From Botryllus schlosseri (taxonomy: Eukaryota): a stretch of 64,000 nucleotides of DNA. A program made the position numbers and the translations under genes. The notes under the pieces were generated by a model. That model did no database searches. It saw only the letters and a list, made by a program, of their open reading frames with translations, and was not told the origin of the DNA. Positions 16,821 to 59,356 of the stretch are shown one piece after another. The stretch is taken from assembly GCA_051294905.1 (NCBI GenBank), contig CM119372.1, positions 11,100,001 to 11,164,000 of the forward strand, read 5' to 3'. Within the stretch, counting starts at the first letter, position 1. The number at the start of each line of letters is the position of its first letter.

Positions 16821-17582
16821 GGTTTCCAGTAAATTCGGCCACCGGTAAATTCGGCCACAGGTAACTTCGGCCCTCGGTAAATTCGGTCCTCGGTAAATTC
16901 GGCCAGGGCCGGGGTAACAATAACATTTACAATAACATTACCTAACCTTAACCCTAACCCTAACCCTAATCCTAACCCTAATCCTAATCCTAATCCAAAC
17001 CCTAATCCTAATCCTAACCCTAACCATAACCCTAACCCCAACATTACCTAACCCTAACCCTAATCCTAACCCTAATCTGAACCCTAATCCTAATCCTAAC
17101 CCTAACCTCCAAATCACTTGATAATAATATGATTATGTAATTAATTCACGTTAATAGTTGGTAATACATTTTTACACAAAATTCTCCTGGGGCCGAATTT
17201 ACCGATTGAATTCGGCCCTCGGTAAATTCGGCCCGTAAATATCCGCATTATCTGCGGTGACTGCTTGATATACGCACTCCCTGTCCTCCAAATCACTTGA
17301 TAATGATATTATTATGTAATTAATTCACATAAGTTGGTAATACGTTTTTATACAAAATTCTCTGAGGGCCGAATTTACCAGGTAAATTCGGCCATCGGTA
17401 AATTCGGCCCCTTGAATATCCGCGCTATCTCCCGCGATTACGCGATCTACACATACCCTGACCTCCAAATCACTTGATAATAGTATAATTATGTAATAAA
17501 TTCATGTTAACGGTTGGTAATACATTTTAATACAATATTCTCGGCGGGCCGAAGTGACCTACGGTCGAATTTACTGGCAACC
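16821..17582. mobile_element. GG..CC non-autonomous TIR element (MULE- or Merlin-like) with an internal telomere-like tract
   Basis: Termini GGTTTCCAGTAAATTCG / CGAATTTACTGGCAACC; TSD GTGTGATA/GTTTGATA. GGTAAATTCGGCC subrepeats and three internal repeats of about 180 bp. Confidence 0.8.
16938..17107. repeat. Telomere-like (CCCTAA/TCCTAA)n tract
   Basis: Direct reading of hexamer repeats; explains the GLGLGL ORF on the minus strand. Confidence 0.95.
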
Positions 17583-26880: not shown

Positions 26881-27641
26881 ATTTTTTTATTATTTCTCAT
26901 TAATATATACCCAAGGAACAGCTCTTGGTTTCAAATAGGTTGTTGGAAATTGACATATAGTCTTCAGGGGTAGTGATGAATATAAGTTGAGCTTATCAAG
27001 GTGTGTTGAGTCAAAAAAGTATGGGAACCATCGGTTTACCGTATTCCAAACTTAAGCATATCCATGTACAAATGCAGTGTACTCTTCATATGGCGATTTC
27101 CCCACCTTACAGTCAAAAAACCAAAATGAAAAAGCTATGGAAAATTGTCTTTGTAACCAGCTTTCATATGATACCCTACTCGCTGGAATATACTTATAAG
27201 GTTTTGCTCAATTCGCATTCTAAATTGTGTAACGCTTGACCGATTTCAGACCATCGACCAAGTTTCGCCTCAATTTAACCTTTAACACTACACCGCATGG
27301 CATTCCATACCGCATGAGAATATAGACCAATATACTAGCTACTCAGAAAACCCAGTGCCAAATCTCAACTGTAATCCAACATCTGTTTACACCTTTTTGA
27401 ATTTTACGTTGATAAACCTGAATGCTGCAGAATGGAAATGAGCAGAAAATCGTCAATTTTTCAAAATAACATAACTTTCGACCCCGGGGATCAATTTTCC
27501 TCAAATAAACTTTATTGTGTTCGAAATTACCTCATCTATGCATGTACCAAATTTCAGAAGATTTGGGAATGTGGGGTTCCAACTTTTGTTGTCCAGGTTG
27601 GGAATGGCCCGTCTGTGTTAATGGTTCAGGAGTATATAAAC

Positions 27642-33350: not shown

Positions 33351-33888
33351 TTAATTAAGTGCATAATTGAAATTATTTCCAAATTTTTGAAAATTCCTCT
33401 TTGCATCCAGAGTATCAAGCGTTTCAGATACACGTTTGATACTTTTCGGATTCAGAACTTTTTTCTTAAGCCGATGACGTGAAGTATCTTTCATATTCTT
33501 TACATCGGTTAAATTAGTTCTTTTTCTTTTCTTTTTAGGACTGGGCATCGTTAGATCATGACCAGTCGCAGATTGCAGTTCTCGTAGGTATTCCGGATCT
33601 TGCCAGTCAGGTTTCCCTAACCCAGTCACCCTTTGCTTGTCACCGTGGGAGTTATTAATATCAACATTCCTGGGATTGCCAGCGAAATCTCTGGGAACGA
33701 TTGGCCCGTGAAATGGACATTTTAGTCGATCCATCCTCGGACAAAGTTTACCGCTCGGCAAGGGAGCCCTACAGGTATGATTGACAGGCTCAAATTTCCC
33801 AACAAAAGGTATACTACGCGTGGTGAGCGCTGTAAGTGCAGCTTCCGACACTTGTTCTCCCTTTGACGCAGTGTCACCACTCCAAAAC
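33351..33888 (-). CDS. UVSSA: UVSSA exon 2 (DUF2043 / zinc-finger region and basic C-terminus)
   Basis: Splicing the 65-bp intron 33889-33953 restores the conserved HRFW motif. Contains CRAPLPSGKLCPRMDRLKCPFHG and ends FGNNFNYALN*. The joined CDS is 674 aa. Confidence 0.95.
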
Positions 33889-33953
33889 CTGAGAAATTAG
33901 AATCGCAATTAACACGATAGCTTGCATTTTAAAGTTTTCAGTATGGCACTTAC

Positions 33954-35440
33954 CGATGCCCGATATCCAGTTCACGTGCCATTCCTAAACTCAAAGTTTC
34001 TTTCAACTCATTCTTTTTCAAATCATCCCATTCAAGAAGATCCTTGCCAAATGGAACAACTGGGGCGTGTCTTATTGATGGTGATGCGGCGTTTGACTGT
34101 GAGCTACCGGAATCTAGACTGATGCTGCTGTATTTCTTTGGGTGAATTTTGATAAGAGGCGTACTCGAATCTTTCCTTCTTTCCAGAACTTTTCGCTGCA
34201 TAGCTAGCGCTCTGGAATATGAGGTGGGGTCGTTGATATTATCATCATCGCGAATCGGCTTCCAAACATTCAGATCTGAAGTCTCTTGACTGCATTTTGC
34301 ACCCTTACCAGTCAAATTAGATTTTTCTGCCTTGCTTGGTTTGGAATCAAGCATTGCTCCGCATTTTTCCGGCACTTCTATGAAACCTTCATCATCGCTG
34401 CTCTCAAACTCACTATCGTATTTGTCCGGATTCGTATTACCAGAGATGGAAATGTTATCATCTGTTTCCACTACCAAATCACGCGATTTGCTCAAACAAT
34501 TTACAATCGAAGCCTTCAAATCGATCATGCGCTTCAATACTACACTTTGCTCACGAAATTGGCTAAGTTGTTGAACCAAATTCTTCACTTTGGATAAGTA
34601 AGTTTTCTTCAAGATCATTTCACGATCTTTCAAATTCTCCAGGATTACCTCGTTGTCCTTGCTGCTATAAATATGCACAAATTTCATAATGTTTTCTGGA
34701 ATATCGATATTAACACTGTAATCTTGCAACACAATGCCCAAAGCTCTCGTATTTTCAGAATCAGTACATTTGTGATCATCTGATTCGTCATTGCCAGCAT
34801 CAGTAAACTTCGGTACAAGCAGACTGATGCACGCTTCCATTTCAGCGACACATGACATTATATCATTCTCATAGAGCTGTATTTCGGCAAGCAGTTTATC
34901 ACACTTGATTTTATCACGCTCCTCCTGTTTTTGTCGTTTATCCTCGGCCGCATTTCTCTGGATTTCCGTCTGTACTTCATCTGCACTCACCATTCTCACG
35001 TTCTTTGTGTTCCGAAGAAAGTTATAACCAAGAGCAAGCCTTTTGTAAGCAGTTCCAAATTTTTCATGCCATTTATGGATTGTCTTCACAGTGACTTTTA
35101 GCAACTCTTGTGCTGCCGACTTCGGCTCAGGTAATGGCATGTCAAAGTTTGTCCCAGCAGCAAGTTCCAAGAAGTCACCGAACCTTTCGAGCAACAAGGT
35201 GCGAAATATGTGAGAACGTTGAAAAAATACATCCATCAATTTCACAGAAGAGAGCCTGATTTCCGAATGATCCTTTTCCAGTTGTGAATACAGTGATCGA
35301 AACCCTTGTTCTAGGTATTCATTCGAGTTCTTGCAAAGTAACTTCAATTTTTTCAAGTTTGCCTTATCAAATTCATGTTTTCCATTGGTGGTCAGGCTTA
35401 CGATCAAGTAAGACAGCTGATCGAAATCAGTTATCTCCAT
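33954..35440 (-). CDS. UVSSA: UV-stimulated scaffold protein A, exon 1
   Basis: VHS-like N-terminus (LTTNG...LKKLKLLCK...HSEIRLS...FQRSHIFR...LPEPKSAA...KRLALGYNFL). Likely ATG at 35440 (MEITDFDQ). Donor CG|GTAAGT at 33953. Confidence 0.95.
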
Positions 35441-36185
35441 GCACGCGTATATTATCGAAGGACTGCGAAAACATAAGAGAAATTGTGAAACTACATCAAA
35501 CAAATGTTGTGTTGGTACTGATACAAAATGATTGTTTACCATGCAACGCAAGGATCTAATGTTTCAACTGAAAGTCACCTTGAATGTCAAGTCATGTAAG
35601 CGTCAACATGAGCCAAGAATTAATTAGAGATCTTTCTTCAAGATCACTTAAACAATATACCATTATGCAATACAATACTTGCGAATATCAAGTTGGATAA
35701 AATTCCTCACGTCTGCAATCATCACAAAAACTGACATGACTAAATGAGGGTCGTTTTGAATCAGCATGGATTAATCACAACTACATACTATATTTGGTAA
35801 AACATAAAAACTGCATGTCAACTATAGCGTATTATATTGCAGCAACTACATCACATCCGAGGTTCGTATGATGAAAGATTGAAGTATTGTAACTGGTGCA
35901 AAGAACAATTGGGCAGTGTGAAAATTAAGAATTAATACACTGAACTGCACCCAAATGTAATCAACGTATATTAATGAAAATGGGCCTACCAGCATTGACA
36001 CTGCACTGAATAAAACAACACATGAAAATTTCATCATTCCAATACTTATTCAGAAAAATTGTACGTGGAACATATCAAACAATGCATACTGTGAACTTTT
36101 CTGCTGCTGTAACATAGCCTACTATCCGATAACTATGTCTGAGTACGATTTACAAAACGACAAGGCATGATGGACAATTGGACAT

Positions 36186-36698
36186 TCACACATCAACAAC
36201 CATTTTTTTATGTACATCTAGCGTATCGACCATTGCACAAAATTCTTCAAACGAAATCTTTCCATCTCCATCAAGGTCGGCATAAATGATAGTCTTGTCG
36301 ACAATCTGCTGTAGCTGAGTATCTTTGAGATTGCTGCCAACCATCATTTTTAAAACTTGAAAGAGTTCCCCATTGGATATATATCCATCGTGATCCATAT
36401 CATAGATTCTGAAGGCAAATCGAAGCTTCGACGATTTGTCTCCTTTTACGCTGAATTGAGACACGCCTTCGATGAACTCGCGGAAATCTACCTCACCATT
36501 TCCATCTTGATCAAAGATGTCAATGACCCGTTGGACGAGTGGATTTTGCTGCAGCTGCGGCAGACTCATGAACTCCTCGACACTAAGTGATCCCGATTGG
36601 TCGAGATCCAATTTTCGAAATCGTTTTCCGAGCCGTGCTATCTCCTCTGGATCAAAATGGGAACACATTTCCATCGGTAGCGATAATTCATTCCCCAT
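36186..36698 (-). CDS. PPP3R1: Calcineurin subunit B (four EF hands), intronless CDS, 170 aa
   Basis: [39 protein letters not shown]...HKKMVVDV, with myristoylation Gly2 after the ATG at 36698. The longer ORF-track N-terminus is probably not real. Confidence 0.97.
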
Positions 36699-37554
36699 TT
36701 TATTATTTTCACTCGAGTGTTTGATGGTAAAGTAACCTGCACGTATGAACGAAACCCTGTGTATTGCACAAAATAAACTGATTTCCAAATATAGCCTATC
36801 ATGTTTCATGATTCTTTAGCTATTCGTATAGGCAGAGGCACAGTTAAAGTCAAATGAGCTGTACACGATATCTCTGGGCTTATTCCGGACTTATCTATGA
36901 TTTCGGACAGGTCCGAACAACAAACGCGTGACAAAATTCCGAGCTACTGACCCATAATCGCGGAATCAACGCACGAAACTGTAAACCACCTAACACTGAA
37001 ACGGTTGTGCGGGATCCGATACGAAACTGCTCTACAAGAACCGTAATTCGCAATTACTACGACGATTCTACTTGTCTTCCCTTTGTCATTTATAGCATCA
37101 TAGGACCGGGAGCACCGAGCAGAGCGGTCTAACTATAGAGCAAGGGTGACAAACATCCGATTTTGACCGACGACCAACGATTTCATCCGGCCCGTTACGC
37201 AATTCTGATTAAATGAAAAAATTGTTGTATTGTCCAGCATATTTTTAACAAAACTCAACATTTTTCGTAAATAATTTGAAAGGAAATGTACATGGCGCAG
37301 TGTTGAGTTTCAAATCAAGTCACAATTAGGAACTAGTCGGTGACATTGAAACCGCATTTTGTGGAGGCAAAAGAGTTCAAATCAGTTTAGAGTTTTCTGT
37401 AAAGACTAAAGGTCGACCAAAATAGCAATTCAGAGGCGAAAACGCAATACGAAACCGTATGTAGGCTACAATTGTACATATGGTATACATGGGTATATAT
37501 ATACATGGACGTGGAAGGTACATGGTGAATATAATAGTTACAAGAAGAATATAG

Positions 37555-38053
37555 GGGTCTAGTCTACTTTCTTGTCCATAACAACATGACCATCACCAAT
37601 CACAGTTCACCATGATCATGTCTAAATTGATGGTGTTTATAATTAAATCAAGGTTAGGGTAACATCGTAATATCATTCTTCACCCTTACTCCCAACCCAA
37701 TGGCCCAATCCTTCGACACCTCGACCTAATTATAATTAGTAACCCCAACTTTAAACCTCATCCAAACCCTAATTTCACGGTATACTCTAGCAGTTCCAGC
37801 CTAACCTTTTATTACCCTAACTAACCCCGGACCCTAATTTAAAGATACACTAACTCTAATTTTTCTATACTCAACCCTAACCTAATCCTCAACCCCAACC
37901 CTCATTTTATGCGACCCCAACCCCAATTTTATGATACCTTAAACTAATCCCTAATCCTAAACCAATTATAAACGCCAAGAATTTTGACATGTTCATGGGG
38001 AGCCCTGATTCGTGATATTGACATCTTTGTGGATAAGAAAGTAGACTAGATCC
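37555..38053. mobile_element. GG..CC MITE with a degenerate telomere-like tract
   Basis: TIR GGGTCTAGTCTACTTTCTT / AAGAAAGTAGACTAGATCC; TSD GAATATAG. CCCTAA/CCCCAA-rich interior. Confidence 0.85.
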
Positions 38054-38932: not shown

Positions 38933-40064
38933 GATTACCAGTGAACCCGTCCCTCGGTGAACCCGTCCCGTGAACCCGTCCCTCGGTGAACCCGTCCCTC
39001 GGTGAACCCGTCCCTCGATGAACTCGGCACCTCCGGCAACCCTAATATCCCCCTCCCCCAACCCTAATATCCCACCCCCGGCAACCCTAATATCCCACCT
39101 CCGGCAGCCCTAATATCCCACCTCCCCCAACCCTAATATCCCACCTCCACCAACCCTAATATCCCACCTCCGGCAACCCTAATATCCCACCTCGGACAAC
39201 CCTAATATCCCACCTCCGGCAACCCTAATATCCCACCTCCGACAACCCTAATATCCCCCTCCCCCAACCCTAATATCCCACCCCCGGCAACCCTAATATC
39301 CCACCTCCGGCAACCCTAATATCCCACCTCCCCCAACCCTAATATCCCACCTCCCCCAACCCTAATATCCCACCTCCACCAACCCTAATATCCCACCTCC
39401 GGCAACCCTAATATCCTAACCCTAATATCCCACCTCCGACAACCCTAATATCCCACCTCCGGCAACCCTAATATCCTAACCCTAATATCCCACCTCCACC
39501 AACCCTAATATCCCCCCTCCCCCAACCCTAGTATCCTACCCGAACCCAATGTCCCACTCCTCGAACCCTAATGTCTCCCCCTACCCTACCCAACCGGCCA
39601 ACCCTAACACCCCACCTCAACCTACAGTTGCAATAACGAGCAGACCACGCGTGGTTGATATGTGAGCAATAACAATCGTTGGGATATATTTTTCATCTGA
39701 ACAAGTCACACACAATATACAATGCGATAAGACCCAATGCGATGTCATGAACAGATACGAGGATGTCGAACGTCGCACGTTCGCCCCTCGCCAAGTCAAT
39801 TCAACAATGAGCCGACCACGCAATCGTGATCTGATCACTCCGTGACTGCGTGATCTACGCATGCCCTGACCTCCTTACAAGATCGACAAATCAGTTGATA
39901 ATAACATTATTAGTTTAATAATTCATAATAATACTTGTTAATACACTTAATTTCAAAATTTCCCGAGGGCGGAATTCACCGAGGGCGGAGTTCATCGAGG
40001 GCCGGGTTCACCGAGGGACGGGTTCTCGGGACGGGTTCACCGAGGGACGGGTTCACTGGCAACC
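38933..40064. mobile_element. GG..CC-type element with a 22-bp minisatellite (CAACCCTAATATCCCACCTCCG)n
   Basis: Termini GATTACCAGTGAACCCGTCCC / GGGACGGGTTCACTGGCAACC; TSD TTCTATTT. Array at about 39030-39540. Confidence 0.88.
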
Positions 40065-43859: not shown

Positions 43860-46700
43860 GCTGAATAAATTTCAATATTATTGACTGTTTAGTCGAGCGT
43901 ATCGGGCCCGTTGAACACCTTGCGCCACTAGAATATCGCTGAAAATTGGTGTGCTGTTACTTAGGCGTTACTGTAGGATTACGAATTCGAAAGCCATTCC
44001 GTGACACAGACTTTAGTTTGGAAAATTTCGAATATTTTTCTTGAATAAATCTGAATTTCAAGACTGTTCAGTAGAGCTTATCGGGCCCGTTGGACACCTT
44101 GCGCCACTTGGATATCGCTGAAAATTATTGTGCTGCTAGGCGTGACTGTAGGCTATACGTATTCGAAAGCCATTCTGTGACACCATAGTGTCCTATATGG
44201 TGTCGACACAAGCAAATCGCACGGTTCAATGAAATTGTATCACGTCACAGTTTCCATTTGGCTACAGGCAATTTGACGGTGATTTTTGACCGGCTTGCCG
44301 AGCATTAAATTTGATGAATCGGGTATCAATCGAAAGCTGACTCTGCACTGATTAAGAAAATATAAATTTTATTCCGCTCGCGGCCCTGGAACCCCCACAA
44401 TCAGCCCCCAATTATTCATTGTCGAGTAGATTGGCAGTGTGACGCAACAATGCTGTCTGGCGAAACGAGAGACTAGCTCAAGAGCAAGGATGCGGCCGAG
44501 CGGCGAGAGTGGGATCAGCTGACGTCGCGGCAATAGCGATGTGCAAACGCGCCACAGAGAAACGCTGCGCTGTTGATACTTTTTCTATGCGTTTCGGTAC
44601 AAGCGAGCACACACCAGCCTATCCTTGACTTGTAAGGGTAGAACTGGGTCCACAGAATGTATTAGGGCCCTACCATTTTCACGCAATATCCTTCAGCTGA
44701 TAAAGATATGTAGGCTACGTCTAAGTAGTCTACATTGGATATGTCAGATTATTATGATATCGATTGCCTTAGCCCGCTTGTTGCGTAGGGCTCCAGAGAC
44801 ACGTCGCGCTGTTGATGGCGGGTGTCGATACTTTCTATAGTCGCTTTTATGGTTAAGTGTGAGCAAGGAGCATTGAGCATGAGCATACATTTCAAGCTTT
44901 TATTTGATCCGTATGGGTAGGACTTGGTCCGCGAATGCAGCAGGTAAAATGTTGATTGTTGAATAAAGCTTAACAGCAGGAGTGTCGAATTAAACTGGTA
45001 TCGCTGTCCGGATTCAATCCGTTACTAGAAAGCTTGCGGGCCATACCTGCCAAATGATTCCAAAATGTTACCACCAAATTCATACCTTTGTTTTTCACTG
45101 GAATATATCTGATATCACTATAAACGTTGACGTTGGAATTTGGTTTAGCATTTTTCAATCACCAAATAGTTTTTTTTGAATGTCGGGGACCTTTTGCGTC
45201 AAAAGTAATACAGTGGTATCACAGATATTTGAATTATATTCATTCTGTAGCCTGTATATATATTCCTAATGTAACTTACGTAAAACGGATTTGCAGTATT
45301 TTTTTCGCATCTGTGAATAACTGAATGTCCATTGTCCATTCGGCCCAACAGAGTTTGCACTTTTTCGCCTTCTCGGAATTTGGCAAGGTCACCGACGTGA
45401 TGCTTATGGGGACTAGAGTGAAAACTCAACACTGTAGTTGTATTACTACAATATGATATATTTACATTATCTAAATTTGCTGTCTTGAGTGAATCTTATT
45501 ACTTGAAAGTATATTTTTCTTACTAGAAATATCTCTAACAGCTGAAGGATTGCGCGAAAATTGGTAGGGACCAAATACATTCTGTGGACCCAGTTCTACC
45601 ATTACAAGTCAAGGAAAGGCTGGTTTGTGCTCGCTTTTAGCGAAGCGCATAGAAAAAGTATCAACAGCGCCACGCATCTCTGGAGCCCTACGCAACAAGC
45701 GGGCTAAGGCAATCGATATCATAATAATCTGACATATCCAATGTAGACTACTTAGACGTAGCCTACCTATCTCTATCAGCTGAAGGATATTGCGCGAAAA
45801 TTGGTAGGGCCCTAATACATTTCGTGGACCCAGCTCTACCCTTACAAGTCAAGGAAAGGCTGGTGTGTGCTCGCTTGTACCGAAACGCATAGAAAAAGTA
45901 TCAACAGCGCAGCGTTTCTCTGCGACGCGATTGCTCATTGCTATTGCCGCGACGTCAGCTGATCCCACTCTCGCCGCTCGGCCGCATCCTTGCTCTTGAG
46001 CTAGTCTCTCGTTCCTCCAGACATCATTGTTGCGTCACACTGCCAATCTATTCGACAATGAATAATTTGGGGCAGATTGTGGGGGTTCCAGGGCCATGAG
46101 TGGAATAAAATTTATATTTTCGCAAGCAGTACAGCGTCAGCTTTCGATTGATACGCGATTCATCAAATTTAATGCTAGGCAAGTCGGTCAAAAATCACCG
46201 TCAAATTGCCTGTAGCCAAATGGAAACTGTGACGTGATACAATTTCATTGAACCGTGCGATTTGCTTGTGTCGACACCATATAGGACACTATGGTGACAC
46301 AGTGTTTAGTTTGGAAAATTTCGACTATTTTTATTTGAATAAATCTGAATTTCAAGACTGTTCAGTCGAGCTTATCGAGCCCGTTGGATAGTTGGACACC
46401 TTGCGCCACCTGGATAACGCTGAAAATTGGTATGCTGCTAGGTGTAACTGTCGGATATACGTATTCGAAAGCCATTCCGTGACACAGCTTATATTTTTTC
46501 TAATATTTTTCATGAATAAATTTGAATTTTATTTACTGTTTAGTCGAGCGTATCCAACCCGTTGGACACTTGGATAACGCTGAAAATTTGCGCGTTGCTA
46601 GGCGTAACTGTAAGCTATACGTAGACGAAAGCCATTCCTTGACACAGGTTATAGTTTGGAAAATTTCGAATATTTCTTGTGAATAAATTTGAGTTACAGT
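43860..46700. repeat. Tandem repeat of 170-180 bp (about 4.5 units) split by a foldback insertion
   Basis: The unit TGAATAAAT...GTCGAGC...GTTGGACAC...CGCTGAAAATT...TTCGAAAGCCATTCCGTGACACAG starts near 43862, 44042, 46337, 46512 and 46680. Confidence 0.8.
44182..46295. mobile_element. Unclassified foldback element with TIRs of about 630 bp
   Basis: Termini ACCATAGTGTCCTATATGG / CCATATAGGACACTATGGT. Comparison with intact neighbouring repeat units gives a 3-bp TSD GAC. Confidence 0.85.
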
Positions 46701-47154
46701 GATTGTCGCGCGCCATGGCCGGAAACTTGATCCTGGTGATACATCCGATACCTGCGTTATTCTACACAGTAGTCCTGAAATTTATTTTTGATGGCTAGAA
46801 TTTGATGACTGACTTCCTAACCGATATAGAACCAGAGGTGGTCAAAGTAGTGAAGAAAGCTACTCACGTAGAAGTAGAAGTAGCGACGGAAAAATCTACG
46901 GCACTTCTTCGTTATTCCCACACATCCAGAAGTGATCACCATGAAACCAATAAATAATTTCCATGAACATGTGAAAATTTATAAACGTCAAAATAAATGT
47001 TTTTCGCGTTGGGATTAGGGCTAGGAGAATACTAGGGTCGGGTGGGAGATATTAGGATAGTGGGAAGTGGGTATTAGGATTAGGGTGGGTTAGGGTCAAG
47101 GTTGGGATATCCGAAGATTAGGGTTGGGGAAGGGGTTATTAGGGTGGGTGGCCC

Positions 47155-49330
47155 CGTGGATATACTCAGCTATCGCAGCTCCCGCAGCTATCGCAGCTAT
47201 CACTTGTGGATATACTCAGCTATCACAGCTATCACCAAAAATCGCAGACATACAGGTCATTTAAAGGTCACGTATCGTCTAGGGCGCAGCTATCAGCGCT
47301 GGAGCTTGTCTGGGTTGAAATAGTGCGCAGCTATCAGATCCGGAGCACGTCTGAGTTGAAATAGTGCGCAGCTATCAGATCCGGAGCAAGTCTGAGTGGA
47401 AATAGTGCGCAGCTATCAGCTCCGGAGCACGTCCGGGTTGAAATAGTGCGCAGCTATCACTACTGTGGATATACTCAGCTATCACATCTATCACCAAAAA
47501 TTGCAGACATACAGGTCATTTAAAGGTCACGTATCGTTTAGGGCGCAGCTATCAGAAAAGGAGCAAGTCTGAGTGGAAATAGTGCGCAGCTATCAGATCC
47601 GGAGCACGTCCAGGTTGAAATAGTGCGCAGCTATCAGCTCCGGAGCACGTCCGGGTTGAAATAGTGCGCAGCTATCACTACTGTGGATATACTCAGCTAT
47701 CACAGCTATCACATCTATCACCAAAAATCGCAGACATACTAGTCATTTAAAGGTCACGTATCGTTTAGGGCGCAGCTATCAGCGCTGGAGCTTGTCTGGG
47801 TTGAAATAGTGCGCAGCTATCACATCCGGAGCACGTCTGAGTAGAAATAGTGCGCAGCTATCAGATCCGGAGCAAGTCTGAGTGGAAATAGTGCGCAGCT
47901 ATCAGATCCGGAGCACGTCTGAGTTGAAATAGTGCGCAGCTATCAGATCCGGAGCAAGTCTGAGTGGAAATAGTGCGCAGCTATCAGATTCGGAGCACGT
48001 CCTGGTTGAAATAGTGCGCAGCTATCAGATCCGGAGCACGTCCAGGTTGAAATAGTGCGCAGCTATCACATCCGGAGCAAGTCTGAGTGGAAATAGTGCG
48101 CAGCTATCAGCTGCGGAGCACGTCCAGGTTGAAATAGTGCGCAGCTATCACTACTGTGGTTATACTCAGCTATCACATCTATCACCAAAAATCGCAGACA
48201 TACAGTTCATTTAAAGGTCACGTATCGTTTAGGGCGCAGCTATCAGAAAAGGAGCAAGTCTGAGTGGAAATAGTGCGCAGCTATCATATCCGGAGCACGT
48301 CCAGGTTGAAATAGTGCGCAGCTATCAGCTCCGGAGCACGTCCGGGTTGAAATACTGCGCAGCTATCACTACTGTGGATATACTCAGCTATCACATCTAT
48401 CACCAAAAATCGCAGACATACTAGTCATTTAAAGGTCACGTATCGTTTAGGGCGCAGCTATCAGCGCTGGAGCTCGTCTGGGTTGAAACAGTGCGCAGCT
48501 ATCACATCCGGAGCACGTCTGAGTAGAAATAGTGCGCAGCTATCAGATCCGGAGCAAGTCCGAGTGGAAATAGTGCGCAGCTATCAGATCCGGAGCACGT
48601 CTGAGTTGAAATAGTGCGCAGCTATCAGATCCGGAGCAAGTCTGAGTGGAAATAGTGCGCAGCTATCAGATTCGGAGCACGTCCTGGTTGAAATAGTGCG
48701 CAGCTATCAGATCCGGAGCACGTCCAGGTTGAAATAGTGCGCAGCTATCACATCCGGAGCAAGTCTGAGTGGAAATAGTGCGCAGCTATCAGATCCGGAG
48801 CAAGTCTGAGTGGAAATAGTGCGCAGCTATCAGATTCGGAGCACGTCCTGGTTGAAATAGTGCGCAGCTATCAGATCCGGAGCACGTCCAGGTTGAAATA
48901 GTGCGCAGCTATCACATCCGGAGCAAGTCTGAGTGGAAATAGTGCGCAGCTATCAGCTCCGGAGCACGTCCGGGTTGAAATAGTGCGCAGCTATCACTAC
49001 TGTGGATATACTCAGCTATCACAGCTATCACATCTATCACCAAAAATCGCAGACATACAGTTCATTTAAAGGTCACGTATCGTTTAGGGCGCAGCTATCA
49101 GCGCTGGAGCTTGTCTGGGTTAAAATAGTGCGCAGCTATCACATCCGGAGCAAGTCTGAGTGGAAATAGTTTGCAGCTATCAGCTCCGGAGCACGTCCGG
49201 GTTGAAATAGTGCGCAGCTATCACTACTGTGGATATACTCAGCTATCACATCTATCACCAAAAATCGCAGACATACAGGTCATTTAAAGGTCACGTATCG
49301 TTTAGGGCGCAGCTATCAGCGCTGGAGCTG
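47155..49330 (+). repeat. 41-bp tandem array with an interspersed unit of about 100 bp (left arm)
   Basis: Unit TAGTGCGCAGCTATCAGATCCGGAGCACGTCTGAGTTGAAA with starts at 47321, 47362 and 47403. Punctuated by TGTGGATATACTCAGC...TTTAAAGGTCACGTATCG. Confidence 0.97.
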
Positions 49331-49398
49331 TGGTTCGAAAATTGCTGTCTTGGACCGCAGAGCAGTTGCCGGAGGTGCCCAAAGGGTGAAAGGAAAAC

Positions 49399-51125
49399 GT
49401 GTATTTCGTGGTGAATAACAAATTAAACATCCGAAGGCAAGAAGAAAACTTGAATAATGTTTTCATAGACGATTGTGGTGCTTGGGGTAGCTTTAAGCGC
49501 TACAAAAAGTACTACATCAAAAACAACGACAGTGATGATCTAAAGATTGTCTATGACTACAAGGGGGATATTTGTAGGCGAGTCAGACATGGTGATAAAG
49601 ATTATATACACATCCCACTGGAAACATTGTCGGACAGCATGGCCCAGCAAAATTCTGTTTTAGTATTGTACATTTATTTGTGTACAAGCAGGGTAAACCC
49701 TGATTACAGACGTAAAATAACATGGATAAAAGATTGCGACAAGGAGCTTGCAGTGTATGAATACCTGGGCAAACATCCCGGGCACGATGTATATGGAAAT
49801 GCCAGATCTGCTTCCGCCAGCGACTACGTAAGAAGTTCAGTGGAGTTTCTGAACGAAGTAAAGCGACTTACGACTTTCATGCCACCAAAAAAGGCATACA
49901 CTACTCTCATGAAAAATAATGATATGAATATGCAACCTAAAAATCATCAGCAAATGCGTGAAAGAGACTGAGAAAAAGAAAGGAAATCCATTCGGAACTT
50001 TCCGTGATTAAGTGACAATGCTCCATCTCAGATGATTATCAAAGGGTGATGAGCATGGTAACGTCTCACCCATACGTGGGATCATGTATAATGGACAAGA
50101 GCGAACCTTTTTGCGCAACCCTGTACATTGAGGAACAAATTAAAGATATTAAGCGATGTTGCTTTTCAGGTCACACGCCGCTGTGTGTTGACAAGACGTA
50201 CAACCTAGGGAATGTCTTTGCGACAGTCACGGCCTATAAAAGCTTGAGCGTAACAAGAACGGATCCCCCATATTCATAGGCCCCATATTTCTACATACAA
50301 AGTCATCTAAAATGTCTTACGCTAATTTTGCTAACCAACTGCAAAAAATATTTCCGGCCGCCGACAAGCTAATAATTGGGACTGACGATGAAATTGCAAT
50401 GCACAGCGCGTTATTGAAAGGACTATCGTGTGCACAACATATTCTATGCTTCAATTACCTGAAAAAAAAATTTAAAGGATCACTTAATTAAGGTTGGGGC
50501 AAGTGAGTCTATTCGGAGGGCTGTAATTGAGTGCGTAACGAGTCTACTGGAGTCATCGTGCCTCGCCACATTTTCGTCACGAGAGGATAATTTAAAGAGT
50601 TGTTGTGAGACCAATTGTTCGCAGATATTGCCATATCTAAATCACGGATTCCTCGACAAGGCTCGTTGTAAAGTCTGGGGACCAAACAAGACACTGCACT
50701 CGCGCAATGCCGCTGCAGACAGTTTTTTCACCACAAATAACGCAGAAACTGTTAATTTTATGATCAAAGTTGAAACTCAGTGGAAGAAACATTCAAAAGT
50801 GTCAGACTTGATCGTTCTATTGTACGATTTAGTGACAAGCGTGTTCATTGACTTTCAACGATCACTTTATAAAACTGCAGGATTGTATCGCCTTAAGGGG
50901 GGATTTTCAAAGTATGAAATGGACCTGTATGAATGGAATGATAAACCTGAACAAGACAGGAGATTGATATTCGATAGATTCCTCTCAGAGCCCATCATGC
51001 GTCATAACAAAAGCCAGATATCATCCGATGGAAAATTGCTGGTAACAGTCCCTGAGAAAAATGCGGGCAAGAAACCAGGACATGTCGGCCGAAAACGCAA
51101 AACAAAGCTGAGGATATTTCAGTGA
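49399..51125 (+). pseudogene. Frameshifted MULE/MuDR-type DDE transposase
   Basis: Across at least three frameshifts: CVDKTYNLG, PIFIGPIFLHTK, IIGTDDEIAM, HILCFNYLKKN (CxxH position, H replaced by Y), TTNNAETVN, and a basic C-terminus AGKKPGHVGRKRK. Confidence 0.8.
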
Positions 51126-51928
51126 AACTGCAATTCTTATAACAATTGAATTACTCAATTGCATTCGTTTTTAAGTCCATTCGTTATTGTTTAATTTTGC
51201 ACATTGTTCGTAGCACTCATGTTTCGTTTCATTTGTTTTTTTATGCTTTTAATACATTGAATGAGAGTTGAATTAAACACAATGGGATTAACAATAGAAC
51301 GTACACCCATATCATCTGCGTTGCGAATGTTTAATATTTTTAATACGCAGGAAGTCGACAAACATGGCAAAAAACCTTTTAAACAGGTAAATGAGAAACT
51401 CCGGCCCTTCAGCTCTATGTTACGTCGACGTGTTAGCACGAAATCCGAGCCGTGGCAGATCCTTCGCTAAGCTTGGTACGGTATAAAACTTCGTCGCCTT
51501 GTGTTAAACACATCGCGAAACCACTCCGCACTGTTTCATGAAAGCACATCGAATAACCAATGCTGCGTAAGGGCCTTATATATAGGCCTACCTTTCTAAT
51601 GAATCTTTGGAAACTACCCCTGAGGAATGTTATATAGCTTATTGACGCCGTTGTTGGTATTGATATTGATTTCGTTTCATTCGGCAACCTTGGTCATTTT
51701 ACACCAGGCCAATATTCGTTATCGTCGTCATGTTTCGGTATTTCAGCTTTGGAGCAGTCGTAAATTGTTCATTATATTTCGAACCACACACTTGGCTATC
51801 GCCCATCGGTGTTGTGCTGATGACGAAATTTAGGGTATACCTCCGGACGGAGCTGATAGATGCGCACCAAATAGCCTACCTCCAGGCAGGGCTCAGAGCT
51901 GATAGCTGAGCATAATTTGAGTCCAGAC

Positions 51929-52520
51929 CAGTGTTGGGATCAAGTCACTACCTGTGAGTCATTTCACTTGGCACATTTTGACTCGAGTCAAGTCAAGTAA
52001 ATCGATTTTCGAAGGTGACTCGAGTCGAGTCAAGTCAAGTCACACATTTTTTGGAGGTGACTCGAGTTAAGTCGAGTCAAGTCAAGTCACAAATCAAGTC
52101 AAATTGAATTTTCGAAGTATGAGAGATGATTCAAAGTCAGTACATTTTGCTAGCTGTGTGAAAGACAGATTAATTTGCTATTTATCTTGAATCAAATAAC
52201 CAATATGAAGTTAAATATACATGCAAAAGGGCGTTGTACCGCTTACGCACACGTATAACTGCTAATAAAACACGTGATAAATATAGAACCGAATACAGAG
52301 AGAGGTTGAAACAAATTTATATGGTACAATAGCCTACAACACACAGCATCTACACATCCGTGAGAATATAAACAAACAGACTATATCGTTGTTCTATTTA
52401 AATCATACAAAAGGGTAAGTGAAGGTGAGCACTGCGCAACTTGAGCATTATGCCGTCTAAGAAACAGAGACACATTGCTATTAGATTAATCTACTACTAC
52501 GGCTACGTAAGCTGTGATAG
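51929..52520. mobile_element. Truncated MITE (CAAGTCAAGT family) inside the MULE
   Basis: The left end matches 22458. It is followed by a LINE-tail scrap and another hAT end at 52566. Confidence 0.7.
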
Positions 52521-53069
52521 CTTTGTTTTCGGTCCATGGAATCATACACCCACCTTGGCCTAGGCCAGGGGTGTCAAACATACGACCCGCGGGCCCCATC
52601 CAGCCCGCCAGACGAAATGTGAGTATTATTATCCCGAATATTTCTGGAAAATGTTGGTGTTTTTAGTAAGAAATACTTGTATTAAATAATCCCTCAAGAC
52701 ATCAGTTGTAGAGTATGTTTATAGGCCACATTATAACTATAACCGACAACGGTGTTGTGGTTTCAATCCAGTCACCATTAGAAATAAATAGCTGGCATTG
52801 ACACCCAATTCCGAGGAGACATACTGATCACAGTATTTTATGGAAAAAATGACCAAAAACTAGTTATTCACAGAAGTGAAATGGCCAACGCGAAACCGCG
52901 TTATATGCAGGTTACATGAAGAATTTACAGTTACACGGGAATATAATTCAAATATCTGTGGTCGTCGCACTGCTACATGGCTTTTGACTCGAAAGATCCA
53001 CAGCTAACAGAGAAACGCTTATCGCGATTTAATAATAATTAAATGAATTTCAACGTGCGCGGTGGCTGC

Positions 53070-54806
53070 ACACTCAGACTTGCTCCGGATCTGATAGGTG
53101 CGCACTATTTCAACCTGGACGTGCTCCGGATCTGATAGCTGCGCACTATTTCCACTCAGACTTGCTCCGGATCTGATAGTTGCGCACTATTTCAACCCAG
53201 ACAAGCTCCAGCGCTGATAACTGCGCCCTAAACGATACGTGACCTTTAAATGACCTGTATGTCTGCGATTTTTGGTGATAGATGTGATAGCTGAGTATAT
53301 CCACAGTAGTGATAGCTGCGCACTATTTCAACCCGGACGTGCTCCGGATCTGATAGCTGCGCACTATTTCAACCAGGACGTGGTCCGGAGCTGATACCTG
53401 CGCACTATTTCCACTCAGACTTGCTCCGGATGTGATAGCTGCGCACTATTTCAACCAGGGCGTGCTCCGGAGCTGATAGCTGCGCACTATTTCCACTCAG
53501 ACTTACTCCGGATGTGATAGCTGCGCACTATTTCAACCTGGACGTGCTCCAGATCTGATAGCTGCGCACTATTTCCACTCAGACTTGCTCCGGATGCGAT
53601 AGCTGCGCACTATTTCAACCTGGACGTGCTCCGGATCTGATAGCTGCGCACTATTTCAACCAGGACGTGCTCCGAATCTGATAGCTGCGCACTATTTCCA
53701 CTCAGACTTGCTCTGGATGTGATAGCTGCGCACTATTTCAACCTGGACGTGCTCCGGATCTGATAGCTGCGCACTATTTCAACCAGGACGTACTCCGAAT
53801 CTGATAGCTGCGCACTATTTCCTATCAGACTTGCTCCGGATGTGATAGCTGCGCACTATTTCAACCTGGACGTGCTCCGGATCTGATAGCTGCGCACTAT
53901 TTCAACGAGGACGTGCTCCGAATCTGATAGCTGCGCACTATTTCCACTCAGACTTGCTCCGGATCTGATAGTTGCGCACTATTTCAACCCAGACAAGCTC
54001 CAGCGCTGATAACTGCGCCCTAAACGATACGTGACCTTTAAATGACCTGTATGTCTGCGATTTTTGGTGATAGATGTGATAGCTGAGTATATCCACAGTA
54101 GTGATAGCGGCGCACTATTTCAACCTGGACGAGTGGACGTGCTCCGGATCTGATAGCTGCGCACTATTTCAACCAGGACGTGCTCCGAATCTGATAGCTG
54201 CGCACTATTTCCACTCAGACTTGCTCCGGATCTGATAGCTGCGCACTATTTCAACCCGGACATGCTCCGGATCTGATAGCTGCGCACTATTTCAACCCAG
54301 ACAAGCTCCAGCGCTGATAGCTGCGCCCTAAACGATACGTGACCTTTAAATGACCTGTATGTCTGCGATTTTTGGTGATAGCTGCGATAGCTGAGTATAT
54401 CCACAGTAGTGATAGCTGCGCACTATTTCAACCCGGACGTGCTCCGGATCTGATAGCTGCGCACTATTTGAACTCAGACTTGCTCCGGATGTGATAGCTG
54501 CGCACTATTTCAACCTGGACGTGCTCCGGATCTGATAGCTGCGCACTATTTCAACCAGGACGTGCTCCGGATCTGATAGCTGCGTACTATTTCAACCAGG
54601 ACGTGCTCCGGATCTGATAGCTGCGCACTATTTCAACCCAGACAAGCTCCAGCGCTGATAGCTGCGCCCTAGACGATACGTGACCTTTAAATGACCTGTA
54701 TGTCTGCGATTTTTGGTGATAGCTGCGATAGTTGTGATAGCTGAGTATATCCACAAGTGATAGCTGCGATAGCTGCGGGAGCTGCGATAGCTGAGTATAT
54801 CCACAG
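53070..54806 (-). repeat. Inverted 41-bp tandem array (right arm)
   Basis: Reverse complement of the left-arm units, with a different order and number of variants. Confidence 0.97.
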
Positions 54807-55161
54807 GGCCGGGTGGGTTCGGATATCCTAAGATTAGGGTTGCGGGACGTTAGGGTCAAGGTTGAGGTAGGATATCCGAAGATTAGGGTTGGGAATATTG
54901 TCATCTTCACCCTCAACCCTGATCTTAGGATATCTTAACCTCATCCAATCCTTGACCCTAACCCACCCTTATATCCCCCATCCATAATATCCCCAAGTCC
55001 CAACCCTTATCTTAGGATATCCTAACCCACCGACCCACCCTAATATCCCCAACCCTTGGGATATCCTAACCCTAACCACCCTAATATCCCCTTCCCCAGG
55101 CCCATCCCGAATCTTAGGATATCCTAACCTAACCCAAATATATCCATCCCTAATCCTAGCA

Positions 55162-56380
55162 CAGGGGTTCTCAAAGGGTGGGCCATGGCCCACTGGTGGG
55201 CCACAGAGCATTTTGAGGTGGGCCACAGAGCCATTTAGAAAATTTCAGAATTAATGTAAGTTTAGTTATATTTCTTATGTTATTCGCTAAAAATATATTC
55301 GTATTATCAAATTATACGTAAGCTACATAAAGCTTTTCATCCGACTCTGATTAGACGTAGTGGCACGCATGAAGTCAGCATGTACAAGTTGAAAACGTTC
55401 TGGCTCTGACAACCTATGGCTAACAGCAACTAAAATAATTTCAAGCGTATAATAACTGGAAGAGAATGCTGAAGTAACCAAGTATTCCGGTAGGGTCATA
55501 TGTCGTATGCCGTTGAAAGGGGTATGCAATGAGCTCGCAATGAAGTGCAATTGATGTACAGATTTACCGAAATTCGGCAGGCCGTATTATTGCAAGATAA
55601 TCATAGCCATAATTGCACGTTATTAGCAACTTCTGGAGGAGGTATATACTGCACCACCGCAACAACGAATCTTAATGGATTGAAGATTTATCGGAGCGCA
55701 TTAATCTTTGAAGTTGGTTTAAAATGTCCGGTCTGGAAATCAATGTACATTGTACATACTGAAAGAGTCACGGGAATTGATTGTATCATTGGATTGAATG
55801 TTCTGACATCGCAACTTCAGTTGTTTTGGAACAAGACATACAAAGTACATCATGCATATTGAAAAATCTTTCTCCACTTCGCTGTAGTACCCCATTCACC
55901 AATGAATTGTTCGATGCCGGCCCAGAATGATTCCCCTCAATAGTATCACTAAAGTCCCAATTACACCGTGCGGGGATCTGATCATTGTGTTTCGCGACGC
56001 GAATGGAGCAGCGGACGAAAATAATCTTCTTAGGAGTTTTTGCTTATGATCTACCAGGGCCGTAACTGCCGCACCCACATCCCCAATTTGGGGAGCTCGA
56101 AGGGGCCCAAGATTGTTTCGTTGGTCGTTTGTTGAAGGAAATTTATTCAACTTGAAATTTTTTTCGCGCTTCGCGCGATTTCATATTCCGGGAGATCGAT
56201 ACTTAAATATCATCAGTTAGAGAAACATGCGCATATTTTAGAGAAATAGGCATATCGGCGCTGTCCATCACCAGTTGACCACGCATTGAACAATATTATG
56301 ACTCCAAGATATCAGGTGGGCCACAGCACATTTTTAAACCGGAAAATGGGCCACGGCCTAGAAAGGGCTGGGAACCCCTG
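55162..56380. mobile_element. hAT (Charlie-type) element inserted into the telomere-like tract of the MULE right arm
   Basis: Termini CAGGGGTTCTCA / TGGGAACCCCTG; TSD TCCTAGCA. Confidence 0.9.
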
Positions 56381-57865
56381 TCCTAGCATATCCTAACCCA
56401 CCCTAATACCACCCCCCCCCCCATCCCTAATCTTAGGATATCCTACCCTAACCCACCCTAATATCTCCCGACCCTAATATCCCCAACCCTAATCTTAGGA
56501 TATCCTAACCCATCCTAATATCCCCCTCCCCCGTCCCTAATATCCGTCTATCCCACCCCAACGCGAAAAACAATTCATTTTGACGTTTATAAATTTTTTG
56601 TTTATGTTCATGGGGTAACATTTATTGGTGTCATGGAGATCATTTTTTCGATGTGTGGGGATTGGGGAATAACGAAGAAGTTCCAAATCTACTCAAGTAC
56701 GAGTAGAAATACTTCTTCCATAAGCAACCTAAAACTACTTGAAGTAGAAGTAGAATTGACTGACTTTCAATCTACTCAAGTAAGCAAGTAGTTTTGAAAA
56801 GTCTTAATTCGTTCGCATGAACTGTCAAAAGCTGCAAATTGAGATATGCGGAAGGTGCAGACAACTTGATTCGTATTGATGCATCCCAGGAGATATCGAT
56901 TTTCGACAGAGTAAGGATTCTTCGCATCATGGGATGCGAATTATAGTATTGATAGGAAAATGCGATGCTAACCCTTTGTTTACTAGAAGACCCCGTTTTA
57001 GACGATATCACGGCAAGTCGCCCTACCCCATATTAGAAGACCCCAAGTTTAGGCGAAAAACAATACGGAGAAGTTGCACTGGATTCGGTTTCGACACTTT
57101 GCGCAATTAGTATAGTTTAATAACAAATATTGTAGATTGTCAAATTTCTATATATAGTGTAGCTTTATTTTCGGGAAATAGAGGCATTACTACACTTGCT
57201 TGTATGCTTCAACATGTATGTTTCTTGTCTTCCGTCCATGAAGCTTCAAGATTGATCTGCTAAAACAGGTGTAACGTTAAAAAAAGCCGGGTTTTTCAGA
57301 TTATCAGGACACGTCATGGGTTGCTAGATTATGATATGGTAGGTAATTGCTAGATTGCAAAACGGTAGTTTCAAACGTTTTGGTGGGCCATATTTACTGT
57401 GTTGAAATATTTGATATGTGCGACAATGCGGTGTGAGTGGAACCAAGCAATCCGGTACCTAAATCATATTCACTGATACTTTCGTGAAAACATATTTGTG
57501 CGCGAAGTACAACAAAATTTCTGAGCTCTACTTGACATTTATGAATATTAAATGTTGGTACCCCGTGAAAACAGCCCCAAAATTCCTCAGGCTATCTTCC
57601 GTATTGGGGGATTAAACTACTTCTACTTGACAAGCCTGAAATAGCAAAAAGTAAGTAAGTAGATTACTAAATATCACGAAGTAGAAATAGAGAAAATCTG
57701 ATCTACTTGAGTAATCACCAGAAGTAGAGCAAAACTACTTGAGTACGGTACTTCCAAAAAGTAGAAGTAATTCGTTACTGACCATCTCTGTGTAGAACCT
57801 CATGTAAATGGTATCATTTATACGGTATTGGCATCTAGATGGACAAAATTAGACAATATAAAACC

Positions 57866-58387: not shown

Positions 58388-58648
58388 TACTATAGCTAGC
58401 CTGATATAATAACATAGAGTCTTGTCTGTTATGCACTATGACTTTTTGCTGTGACATCAACCGACTTCTTCTTTTGAACAAGAATTCCTCTTGGTATCCT
58501 TGATCGCTCATTTAATGTTCACTTGTGTCTGTATATTGAGCTAATGTATAGTCATCTGTTGTCAATCAAGGTACCGTATTCTTATTCTAGTGGATTAACT
58601 ATGCAAGGTTAATTCAGACACACGGAGCTGCATCAATGCGATTTAACC

Positions 58649-59356
58649 ATGGCTTGGAGATCACATGGAAAGAATAATGTTGAGCTGATAGTAAATATGC
58701 GGAAGAATGGACTCATCAAATCCGACACGGTATTAAATGCAATGAAAGCTACCGATAGAAAATTCTACTGTCCGCATAACCCATATGATGATGCGCCCCA
58801 AAGTATTGGATATCAAGTCACAATAAGTGCTCCTCATATGCATGCCCATGCTTTGGAGATACTAGAAGGTCATCTTACTTCTTCTACTAAATCGAGAGCA
58901 TTAGATGTTGGATCAGGCACTGGGTATTTAACAGCATGCATGGCAAGAATGATTGGTGAACGTGGGGTTGTCATTGGAATTGAGCATATTCCAGAGCTTG
59001 TCGCCAAGTCTGTTGAAAATGTTGAAAAAGACGACAAAAACCTTATTTGCACTGGGCGAGTAATACTCGTCCAAGGAGATGGACGTTTAGGATATAACCC
59101 TGAACACTTCCGTGATGGACTATATGATGCTATTCATGTCGGTGCAGCAGCTCCGGATGTACCTGAAGCGCTACTGCAACAATTAAAACCAGGGGGACGG
59201 TTAGTTCTACCCATTGGACCTCCAGGCGAGACTCAGATGCTCCAGCAATGGGATAAAGCAGAAGACGGAAGTTTATCTCATAAAAATTTAATGTCTGTAG
59301 TTTATGTTCCTCTCACTGACAGAAAAAAACAGTGGCCTAGTGGTATTCGTGGGTGA
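58649..59356 (+). CDS. PCMT1: Protein-L-isoaspartate O-methyltransferase, intronless CDS, 235 aa
   Basis: MAWRSHG start, [20 protein letters not shown]-binding motif [35 protein letters not shown]. Confidence 0.97.

Follow-up and report, generated by a model that had tools for sequence, protein, structure and literature searches.

The segment at positions 46900-56684 of the 64-kb window (the whole stretch of DNA analysed) is a Mutator-type cut-and-paste transposon, with GG (46900) and CC (56684) as its termini. It is very probably a Mutator/MULE DNA transposon with foldback-type arms that carries a gene of the animal OTU-MULE group and is inserted in a small host repeat. The sequence-only reading had proposed a decayed Mutator-like foldback transposon, and this identification is backed by sequence, profile and fold evidence. 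The element is real, its target site duplication (TSD) having been checked on two empty paralogues; to judge from its sequence, this copy is dead. Compared with known families by description only, it appears to be a new family of a known design, the foldback MULE with tandem-repeat arms.

Termini and insertion site

An identical 8-mer flanks the element at 46892-46899 on the left and 56685-56692 on the right. Separate BLAST searches with the two flanks led to a pair of further copies of a single host repeat, elsewhere in the same window (21242-21450 and 6676-6981). At both paralogous sites the flank matches overlap by exactly 8 nt and the 8-mer occurs once, which identifies these as empty sites and upholds the GG..CC termini and 8-bp TSD claimed earlier. 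By itself, an 8-bp TSD is also compatible with hAT, P or Merlin, but none of these can be the identity of the main element, since its protein is that of a MULE. Both its TSD length and its long, G/C-ended TIRs lie within the MULE range, which the available portions of PMC6446971 and PMC13359780 give as a TSD of 8-11 bp and long TIRs ending in G/C.

The region is rich in repeats and nested elements, as might be expected if chance or misassembly had placed two independent satellite patches beside a MULE remnant. Such an origin is scarcely credible, as the inverted layers follow the same order at both ends, the TIRs are unique, and the TSD is confirmed by the empty paralogues; the empty-site comparison effectively rules out chance juxtaposition.

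Structure of the arms

The outermost layer is a TIR of 111 bp on the left (46900-47010, + strand, GG end) and 125 bp on the right (56560-56684, - strand, CC end). The two are 77.6% identical in inverted orientation (E 6e-21), and the first 17 nt were found at the element's two ends only, with 3 mismatches tolerated, in agreement with the earlier claim of about 110 bp of unique TIR per side.

Both arms also contain a higher-order array, at 47152-49329 on the left (+ strand; 35 complete 41-bp units, 7 spacer blocks) and at 53060-54808 on the right (- strand; 30 41-bp units and a single 49-bp unit, with 4 spacer blocks). The 41-mers stand in runs of 3-17 with spacer blocks of 95-104 nt between them. 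In the left array the runs comprise 4, 3, 9, 3, 13 and 3 units, and the last unit is broken midway against coding sequence. The arrays are inverted relative to each other, the arms matching over up to 658 nt at 92%, and a GCTATC core occurs 55 and 38 times in the two arms, on one strand throughout. The outer TIRs are only about 78% alike, whereas over the 179 nt of array next to them a single substitution and one 9-bp unit are the sole differences, a contrast that speaks against the main reading. About 2 kb of 41-bp array had been described on each side; the inverted arrays are indeed present, but the right one spans about 1.75 kb, and the organization is higher-order, with spacers. These multi-domain inverted arms with tandem repeats unequal in number are characteristic of foldback elements, and tandem repeats in inverted termini are also a Rehavkus feature. 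No exact copy of the 41-mer core was found among viral or prokaryote contigs.

The transposase and its relatives

Protein comparison places a 5'-truncated MULE transposase pseudogene at 49330-51125 (+ strand), consisting of a GCM-like DNA-binding region, a DDE core and a basic tail. Its earlier description as a frameshifted DDE transposase is correct as to the frameshifts, of which there are three (near 49960, 50262 and 50462), but the gene has also acquired a stop at 49387 and lost its N-terminal part. The piece 50240-50488 matches PF10551 at E 0.006, a result that favours the proposed MULE identity at a score (17.4) below the Pfam cut-off (27.6). All columns of the D, D, E triad are retained in the window pieces. 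The (C/D)xxH motif that follows the second D, a MULE superfamily motif according to the available part of PMC5499845, reads Y in the element copy at 46900-56684, and is restored by a His codon at 50456 in contigs from three other DNA data sets (X1, X7 and X11). The residue before the catalytic E, W in the relatives and the likely counterpart of Muta1 W401, is F in this copy; the 40 contig differences listed, with 493 more beyond them, do not include this position.

The piece 50016-50276 retrieved 273 relatives at E<=0.001, which tile all four window pieces in order (best P0095, E 3e-68); the gene is that of a Mutator-type (MULE) transposase, from a group widespread among animals. Of 31 relatives scanned, 25 matched PF10551 with E<=0.01, ten of them reaching the curated cut-off, while 12 matched OTU, eight of them at cut-off, and OTU lies upstream in 26 of the 29 related loci having at least 1300 nt upstream. 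A PHD finger was found in two of the 31, both weak and below cut-off, and the front of this copy is absent. FLYWCH and SWIM were found in none of the 31, nor was FLYWCH found in any of four longer cluster members. In the 64-kb window itself no OTU domain was found, in keeping with the 5' deletion of the gene.

The catalytic core of the P0095 model (residues 242-558) has as its best structural match the ISCth4 transposase (IS256/Mutator family, PDB 6xg8; Foldseek E 7.5e-6; VIA Z 12.6, rmsd 5.1, 231 aligned), although this protein is bacterial, only 11% identical, and matched in the core alone. ISCth4 was also the sole match of a PDB sequence search (E 0.068). The N-terminus of the model matches a GCM domain (Z 7.6, rmsd 3.7, 102 aligned), and the N-terminal region retained in the window is GCM/CG-1-like; for this region CG-1 clusters came up in the ESM Atlas at 0.83-0.88, but recognition was low, so that they are no more than a lead. 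The full protein of the group, as seen in relatives, is (PHD)-OTU protease-GCM-like DNA-binding domain-DDE core, and the missing front of this copy presumably conformed to it.

A word-index search of longer proteins gave no match to the pieces 50463-51122 and 49390-49968, which is weak evidence, and viral contigs contained no transposase relative. No RNA data set was listed as containing the sequence. In RNA run X24, of which about 6/100 was read, there were zero reads over 49427-50823 and a depth of at most 2.1 at the 3' end, values that are taken neither for nor against expression.

Repeat-built ends also occur in relatives L004, L018, L031 and L040. TSDs of the related loci were mostly unreadable; among nine end pairs, L004 alone gave a candidate, of 8 or 9 bp.

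Variant copies and the joint between array and gene

Comparison with the X1, X7 and X11 contigs shows a sense codon at 49387 in X1 and X7, 4 extra nt at 49960 and 13 extra nt at 50262 in all three, and 1 nt fewer at 50462 in X7 and X11; among the differences listed, the last is not in X1. These indel sizes agree with the frame steps of the pseudogene. The lesion-free states are spread over several contigs, and none of those listed covers all lesions. As X1 also lacks the listed change at 50462, an intact copy is not demonstrated.

None of the contigs listed bridges the array/gene joint (49329/49330), and the link between arms and transposase therefore rests on one copy. A diverged X7 contig matches exactly up to 49330, where 24 nt without likeness to the array follow; in X11, by contrast, it is the array unit that runs on normally beyond 49329.

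Downstream of the gene, the 3' internal region (51126-51840) has a depth like that of the transposase to about 51585 and a higher one from 51586; because of this resemblance, 51126 to about 51585 is probably the element's own. Nested high-copy repeats, which we take to be MITE/hAT, cover part of 51840-52980, with a CAAGT-rich element from about 51929, another element from about 52566 (limits approximate) and other copies within the window. Depth reaches 1e4-1e6 over 51840-52601, whereas the gene has 45-1070. A non-coding element of 1219 bp with CAGGGG ends, presumably hAT-like, is nested at 55162-56380 and has its own 8-bp TSD (55154-55161, identical to 56381-56388). Nested insertions account for some 1.2 kb and for a further 0.8-1.1 kb or so.

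The abrupt start of coding homology partway through a 41-bp unit, the unbridged joint, and the patching of the stretch ahead of the right array with other repeats raise the question as to whether the element is a composite, in which non-autonomous foldback arms captured, or recombined with, a truncated transposase of a different MULE family. There is a small but real chance of this. Conversely, this transposase group and MULEs produce GG..CC ends, an 8-bp TSD and arms built of repeats, and the gene runs on into 3' sequence of similar depth. Depth, which is not copy number, adds a weak argument against a composite: the bin that includes 30 nt of array exceeds the next bin, which is gene only, by a factor of just 5-8 or so, the nested MITEs being at 1e4-1e6.

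The G-rich layer

A G-rich tract occupies the same position in both arms. The left tract (47011-47150, + strand) is a mosaic of ATTAGGG and GGATAT(CC) words with no tandem TTAGGG, and the right tract has an inner part (54900-55161, - strand) and an outer part (56389-56562, - strand). The two C-rich mirror pieces noted from the sequence (54900-55160 and 56380-56560) therefore exist, but are one tract cut by the 1219-bp nested element. In addition, a 90-nt piece of the right tract (54807-54896, + strand) is locally inverted and folds back on 54900-55030 (DNA fold -70.1 kcal/mol, z -9.2). Tract length and order are strongly unlike between the arms.

TTAGGG is enriched, with 5 in 140 nt against 0.23 in shuffles, a count reached by 0 of 2000 shuffles. 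Tandem TTAGGGTTAGGG, however, is absent from every G-rich tract of the element, perfect telomeric runs reach at most 8-13 nt, and hexamer coverage is only 11-24%. While the enrichment bears out one side of the "telomere-like" description, the label is overstated: the tract is not the tandem (TTAGGG)n of a telomere, and true telomere addition is rejected. Each tract has 16-22 GGG runs and a G4Hunter-type mean of 1.0-1.4; the left tract is G-quadruplex-prone by score only.

Two unrelated 8-bp-TSD elements of the 64-kb window bear similar G-rich tracts, the GATATTAGG word being common to the element's tract and a neighbouring 8-bp-TSD element, and similar tracts also occur in unrelated elements of other animals. 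Most likely, the G-rich layer is not telomere sequence added by telomerase but a linker prone to slippage, such as TIR elements of this genome commonly carry.

The equal position in both arms, the TTAGGG excess, the GGG runs and the common word could also reflect a selected part of the arm, a G-quadruplex or telomere-type protein site that aids synapsis, targeting or silencing escape. This is unlikely: tandem telomeric repeats are absent, the arms differ strongly, and a 1.2-kb insertion and an inversion have been tolerated. Furthermore, nine candidate pairs of ends were inspected at related loci and none had the tract, and the G-rich cluster seen in 5 of 80 loci lay within small separate elements or away from known ends. 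It is very unlikely that the layer is a functional cis-module common to the OTU-MULE family and nearby GG..CC 8-bp-TSD non-autonomous elements; if it were, TTAGGG-bearing mini-elements, widespread in marine invertebrates, would be tied to MULE transposases, and such elements would mimic telomeres.

Comparison with known elements

The following comparisons draw on the available portions of the papers cited. Rehavkus, a Repbase group beside or within MULE, comprises elements of 5-18 kb with a TIR and variable subterminal tandem arrays, of up to 50 units and with Tribolium termini sometimes exceeding 11 kb (PMC6446971, PMC12581902). By description only, it differs in its listed TSD (9 bp, against 8 bp at the element's one site) and in that OTU, present in relatives of this transposase, is not listed for it in those portions; its PHD finger may have a counterpart in the two weak, below-cut-off matches among 31 relatives. 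MuDR-6_HM of Hydra (group 14, PMC6446971 Table 1), also an animal MULE, has an OTU ("Ovarian Tumour") domain, as do most relatives of this transposase, but is listed there without TIR or TSD; the likeness is one of description, and kinship a lead only.

In the Phantom/Muta group, which includes Muta1 of Aedes (PMC5499845), Tm1 of Meloidogyne (PMC3169594) and Phantom Cs of Ciona savignyi, a MULE transposase similarly lies within foldback TIRs with subterminal tandem repeats and a TSD of 8-9 bp. Unlike the 2-kb higher-order arrays described here, Phantom repeats are of 12-14 bp and the arms of a few hundred bp. Phantom also has an N-terminal FLYWCH finger, whereas the relatives scanned have OTU instead and the N-terminal region is GCM/CG-1-like. 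Membership of Phantom is not supported, and the element, the extreme N-terminus of which is missing in this copy, is probably not Phantom.

Tetris of Drosophila virilis, a proposed Mutator, has three-domain TIRs that include a domain of tandem repeats and reach 1.7 kb, and a TSD of 8-10 bp, but is non-coding, with 220-bp units and, in the portion available, no mention of a G-rich layer (PMC4079207). Layered tandem-array TIRs are therefore known from Tetris, Rehavkus, Tm1 and Muta1, and the suggestion of an undescribed telomere-plus-satellite design is weak on that point, as it is on the G-rich layer, which is not a telomeric array. What stands is that the literature search found no direct precedent for a TTAGGG-like layer in MULE arms or for telomere-like repeats in TIR elements, on which the available portions of PMC2872659, PMC6947457 and PMC9071541 hold nothing. 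The search also found no paper on ascidian foldback elements.

Proposed history and implications

By analogy with Muta1, whose subterminal repeats raise binding and excision (PMC5499845, available part), the transposase would cut at the GG..CC terminal TIRs and bind many copies of a short oriented array motif, for which the GCTATC core is a likely candidate; more repeats would then mean stronger binding and more excision. Slippage and unequal exchange may have enlarged the arrays to higher-order blocks. A single deletion at the 49329/49330 joint probably removed the inner left arm, the promoter and the N-terminal coding region, and the copy also acquired the stop, three frameshifts and nested insertions. 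With its gene truncated and bearing these lesions, the copy would be mobile only with transposase supplied in trans.

A telomere link of the element is not supported. Its importance is modest: it offers a clear MULE case in which putative transposase-binding repeats have grown to a 2-kb higher-order array, the route from transposable element to satellite having already been proposed for Tetris and Rehavkus in the portions of the literature available. It also links such repeat-array arms with a little-described group of animal MULEs that has an OTU domain, and, with open-frame alleles in other samples, the family may provide a usable test of whether array length tunes transposition.

Insertion and Surroundings

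The main element extends from 46900 (GG) to 56684 (CC), a length of 9785 bp, and an identical 8-mer flanks each end. When the two flanks were blasted separately, both matched two further copies of a host repeat, at 21242-21450 and 6676-6981, with the flank matches overlapping by exactly 8 nt at each copy. The 8-mer is single-copy at both of these empty sites, which shows that the main element is genuinely inserted, with an 8-bp TSD. These observations bear out the GG..CC termini and 8-bp TSD proposed by the sequence-only reading. Its outer TIR layer of about 110 bp is likewise confirmed: the outer TIRs measure 111 and 125 nt, are 77.6% identical, and have first 17 nt that are absent elsewhere in the window.

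Directly to the left, within a tandem repeat of ~178 bp, sits a second foldback element of about 2.1 kb (44175-46302), with 505-nt arms at 94% and internal repeats of ~240 bp. Elsewhere in the window, a frame of 707 aa (27375-29498, +) encodes integrase H2C2 and rve domains and corresponds to the 3' end of the pol gene of an LTR retrotransposon, and long unbroken host-gene frames lie at 33351-35563 (-), 36186-36815 (-) and 58613-59356 (+). In this order, the host genes are UVSSA, in two frames (UVSSA_N and DUF2043), one for an EF-hand protein resembling calcineurin B, and PCMT; all three look intron-poor. The host itself is apparently an animal.

The Transposase and Its Relatives

The transposase is encoded at 49330-51125 (+) in four frame pieces, one of which matches PF10551 weakly (E 0.006, below cut-off). 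With the second piece (87 aa) as the query, HMMER found 273 relatives, whose matches cover the four pieces one after another at about 22-48% identity; the two that are species-named are from Branchiostoma. Among the 31 relatives taken for domain scanning, the longer of 150 listed, the MULE domain was found in 25 (10 at cut-off), OTU in 12 (8 at cut-off) and PHD in two, both below cut-off, while neither FLYWCH nor SWIM was found in any. In the window copy the catalytic triad residues are retained, the CxxH histidine is replaced by Y, and the W preceding the last E by F. The structure model is that of the closest relative, P0095 (pLDDT 85.5), rather than of the window protein, and its best match is ISCth4 (Foldseek E 7.5e-6; VIA Z 12.6, rmsd 5.1, 231 aligned). 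Together, the weak PF10551 match, the domains of the relatives, the retained triad and the P0095 fold uphold the proposed transposase class, and the main element is a MULE. The N-terminal part of the model matches a GCM domain with a middling score (Z 7.6, rmsd 3.7, 102 aligned), a predicted likeness that agrees with the WRKY-GCM1 domains known in MULE transposases (PMC1702500).

Relatives are also encoded by 478 stretches of metagenome contigs, of which 80 were retained as loci. An OTU domain lies upstream in 26 of the 29 loci having at least 1300 nt upstream; none was found in the window. Four loci (L004, L018, L031 and L040) have ends built from 9-17-bp repeats, showing that arms made of repeats characterize the transposase group. 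L040, an OTU-MULE from another animal, is a smaller foldback of this group; it has GG ends, and its modular arms are based on a 10-bp unit (L040:1-400 and L040:7630-8168). Two related proteins, P0147 and P0011, carry tandem peptide repeats, that is, coding minisatellites, in the linker that joins the OTU domain to the DNA-binding region.

State of the Window Copy

Four sequencing runs were compared with 49300-53095, and contigs from other copies of the gene came from data sets X1, X7 and X11. Two sets of contigs can be told apart, a close one that differs by about 1-4% and another that differs by about 10-14%. Other copies have a sense codon at 49387 (X1, X7; X11 not covering), 4 extra bases at 49960 and 13 at 50262 (X1, X7, X11), a His codon at 50456 (X1, X7, X11), and a 1-base deficit at 50462 (X7 and X11, whereas X1 does not list it). 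Since these indels have just the lengths needed to step from one frame piece to the next, the family is not fixed for the lesions. All lesions are never covered by a single contig; an intact copy of the transposase likely exists in the family. The description of the transposase as frameshifted thus stands for 49960, 50262 and 50462, but was incomplete, as there is also a stop at 49387 and the front is missing. On 51840-52601 the depth of 1e4-1e6, versus 45-1070 on the gene, identifies nested high-copy repeats. One contig from X11, a run labelled as another organism (organism B), is about 98% identical to the transposase on 49581-50349, which may reflect a close species, a label difference or transfer.

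At 49329/49330 the left array abuts coding sequence. Homology to relatives begins exactly there; a diverged X7 contig matches exactly to 49330 and then continues unlike the array, and a loose end in X11 indicates that the array unit normally runs on past 49329. No contig among those listed bridges this joint, so it is just conceivable, though unlikely, that the arms and the gene derive from different families. A deletion joint is the reading we favor, in which the inner left arm, the promoter and about 350-450 codons would have been lost.

Organization of the Arms

The proposed 41-bp array is present in both arms, yet it is not a simple one: the arm arrays are higher-order, with spacer blocks. 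Parsed on a common core, the left arm holds 7 spacer blocks and 35 complete 41-mers, the latter grouped into runs of 4, 3, 9, 3, 13 and 3, and the right arm 30 41-mers, one 49-mer and 4 spacers. Array modules of 9, 18, 23/25, 41 and 61 bp all start with this core. Divergence among units is 11.5% in the left arm and 12.9% in the right, and 12.2% when units of the two arms are compared, whereas each differs from its nearest neighbour unit by only 1.05%; a few variant types have therefore been shuffled, rather than each arm diverging on its own. The two arms contain GCTATC 55 and 38 times and its complement not at all, compared with 15 and 14 occurrences in the 54 kb outside. Between arms, the first 179 array nt are one substitution and one 9-bp unit apart, far closer than the outer TIRs; either conversion or an asymmetry built into the ends may account for this.

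The G-rich tract had been called telomere-like. TTAGGG is indeed enriched, with 5, 7, 5 and 3 copies in the four tract pieces versus 0.09-0.35 in shuffles, none of 2000 of which reached the observed count. However, the pieces contain no tandem TTAGGG pair, perfect telomeric runs reach at most 8-13 nt, hexamer coverage is 11-24%, and words of the types ATTAGGG and GGATAT(CC) make up the tract as a mosaic. The right tract is interrupted by a nested element of 1219 bp that has an 8-bp TSD of its own, and an inverted stretch of 90 nt of the tract forms a hairpin (z -9.2).

Similar clusters also occur in unrelated elements. Two of the three other TTAGGG clusters in the 64-kb window lie inside non-coding elements, at 16821-17582 and 38933-40064, which share near-GG..CC ends of a related GGTT(G/T)CCAGT type, 8-bp TSDs (with 1 and 0 mismatches, respectively), subterminal repeats of 16 bp and, on one side, a tract of CCTAAC or CCCTAATATCC, and whose sequence is unrelated to the main TIR. 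Both are probably non-autonomous MULE-like elements, and the second contains the word GATATTAGG of the main tract 22 times. A further degenerate CCCTAA cluster at 37767-37949, possibly a remnant end, adjoins GACATGTTCATGGGG words that resemble a portion of the right TIR of the main element. Among the related-transposase loci, 5 of 80 have 3-4 TTAGGG copies within 150 nt; the clusters of L062 and L063 lie inside small separate inverted-repeat elements. The G-rich module is a common ingredient of invertebrate TIR elements, neither a family mark nor a telomere, and it is very improbable that the layer mimics telomeres.

Placement and Proposed Mechanism

Such transposon families are usually catalogued in Repbase and Dfam. 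The arm design had been taken as undescribed, but layered arms with arrays, as seen here, are described in the literature for Rehavkus (PMC12581902 and its preprint), Tetris (PMC4079207), Tm1 and Muta1; what stands is that no paper was found describing a TTAGGG-like layer in MULE arms. A MULE survey (PMC6446971) gives Rehavkus a 9-bp TSD and PHD, gives Phantom an 8-10 bp TSD and either no added domain or one of FLYWCH and SWIM, and notes OTU in MuDR-6_HM; OTU and PHD add-ons on transposases are also known (PMC2836005). The earlier comparison with Phantom and Rehavkus holds for the foldback arms with arrays, but not for membership: Phantom was not assigned, given the lack of FLYWCH in the 31 relatives scanned, nor was Rehavkus, which its published description sets apart by the 9-bp TSD.

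The insertion footprint, arm anatomy, transposase class and lesions were established in this analysis. By analogy, the main element would work like a foldback MULE of the Rehavkus/Muta1 type. Muta1 transposase binds subterminal repeats, with more repeats giving stronger binding and more excision (PMC5499845), and Galileo and Tetris have been argued to work similarly (PMC4079207). The oriented GCTATC core would then be a putative secondary binding site for the GCM-like domain, slippage and unequal exchange could enlarge the arrays, the G-rich layer may be a passive linker, and this copy would be mobile only in trans. The main element is real and its limits are well defined; it is a dead copy, and the family to which it belongs, though of a known kind, is probably uncatalogued.
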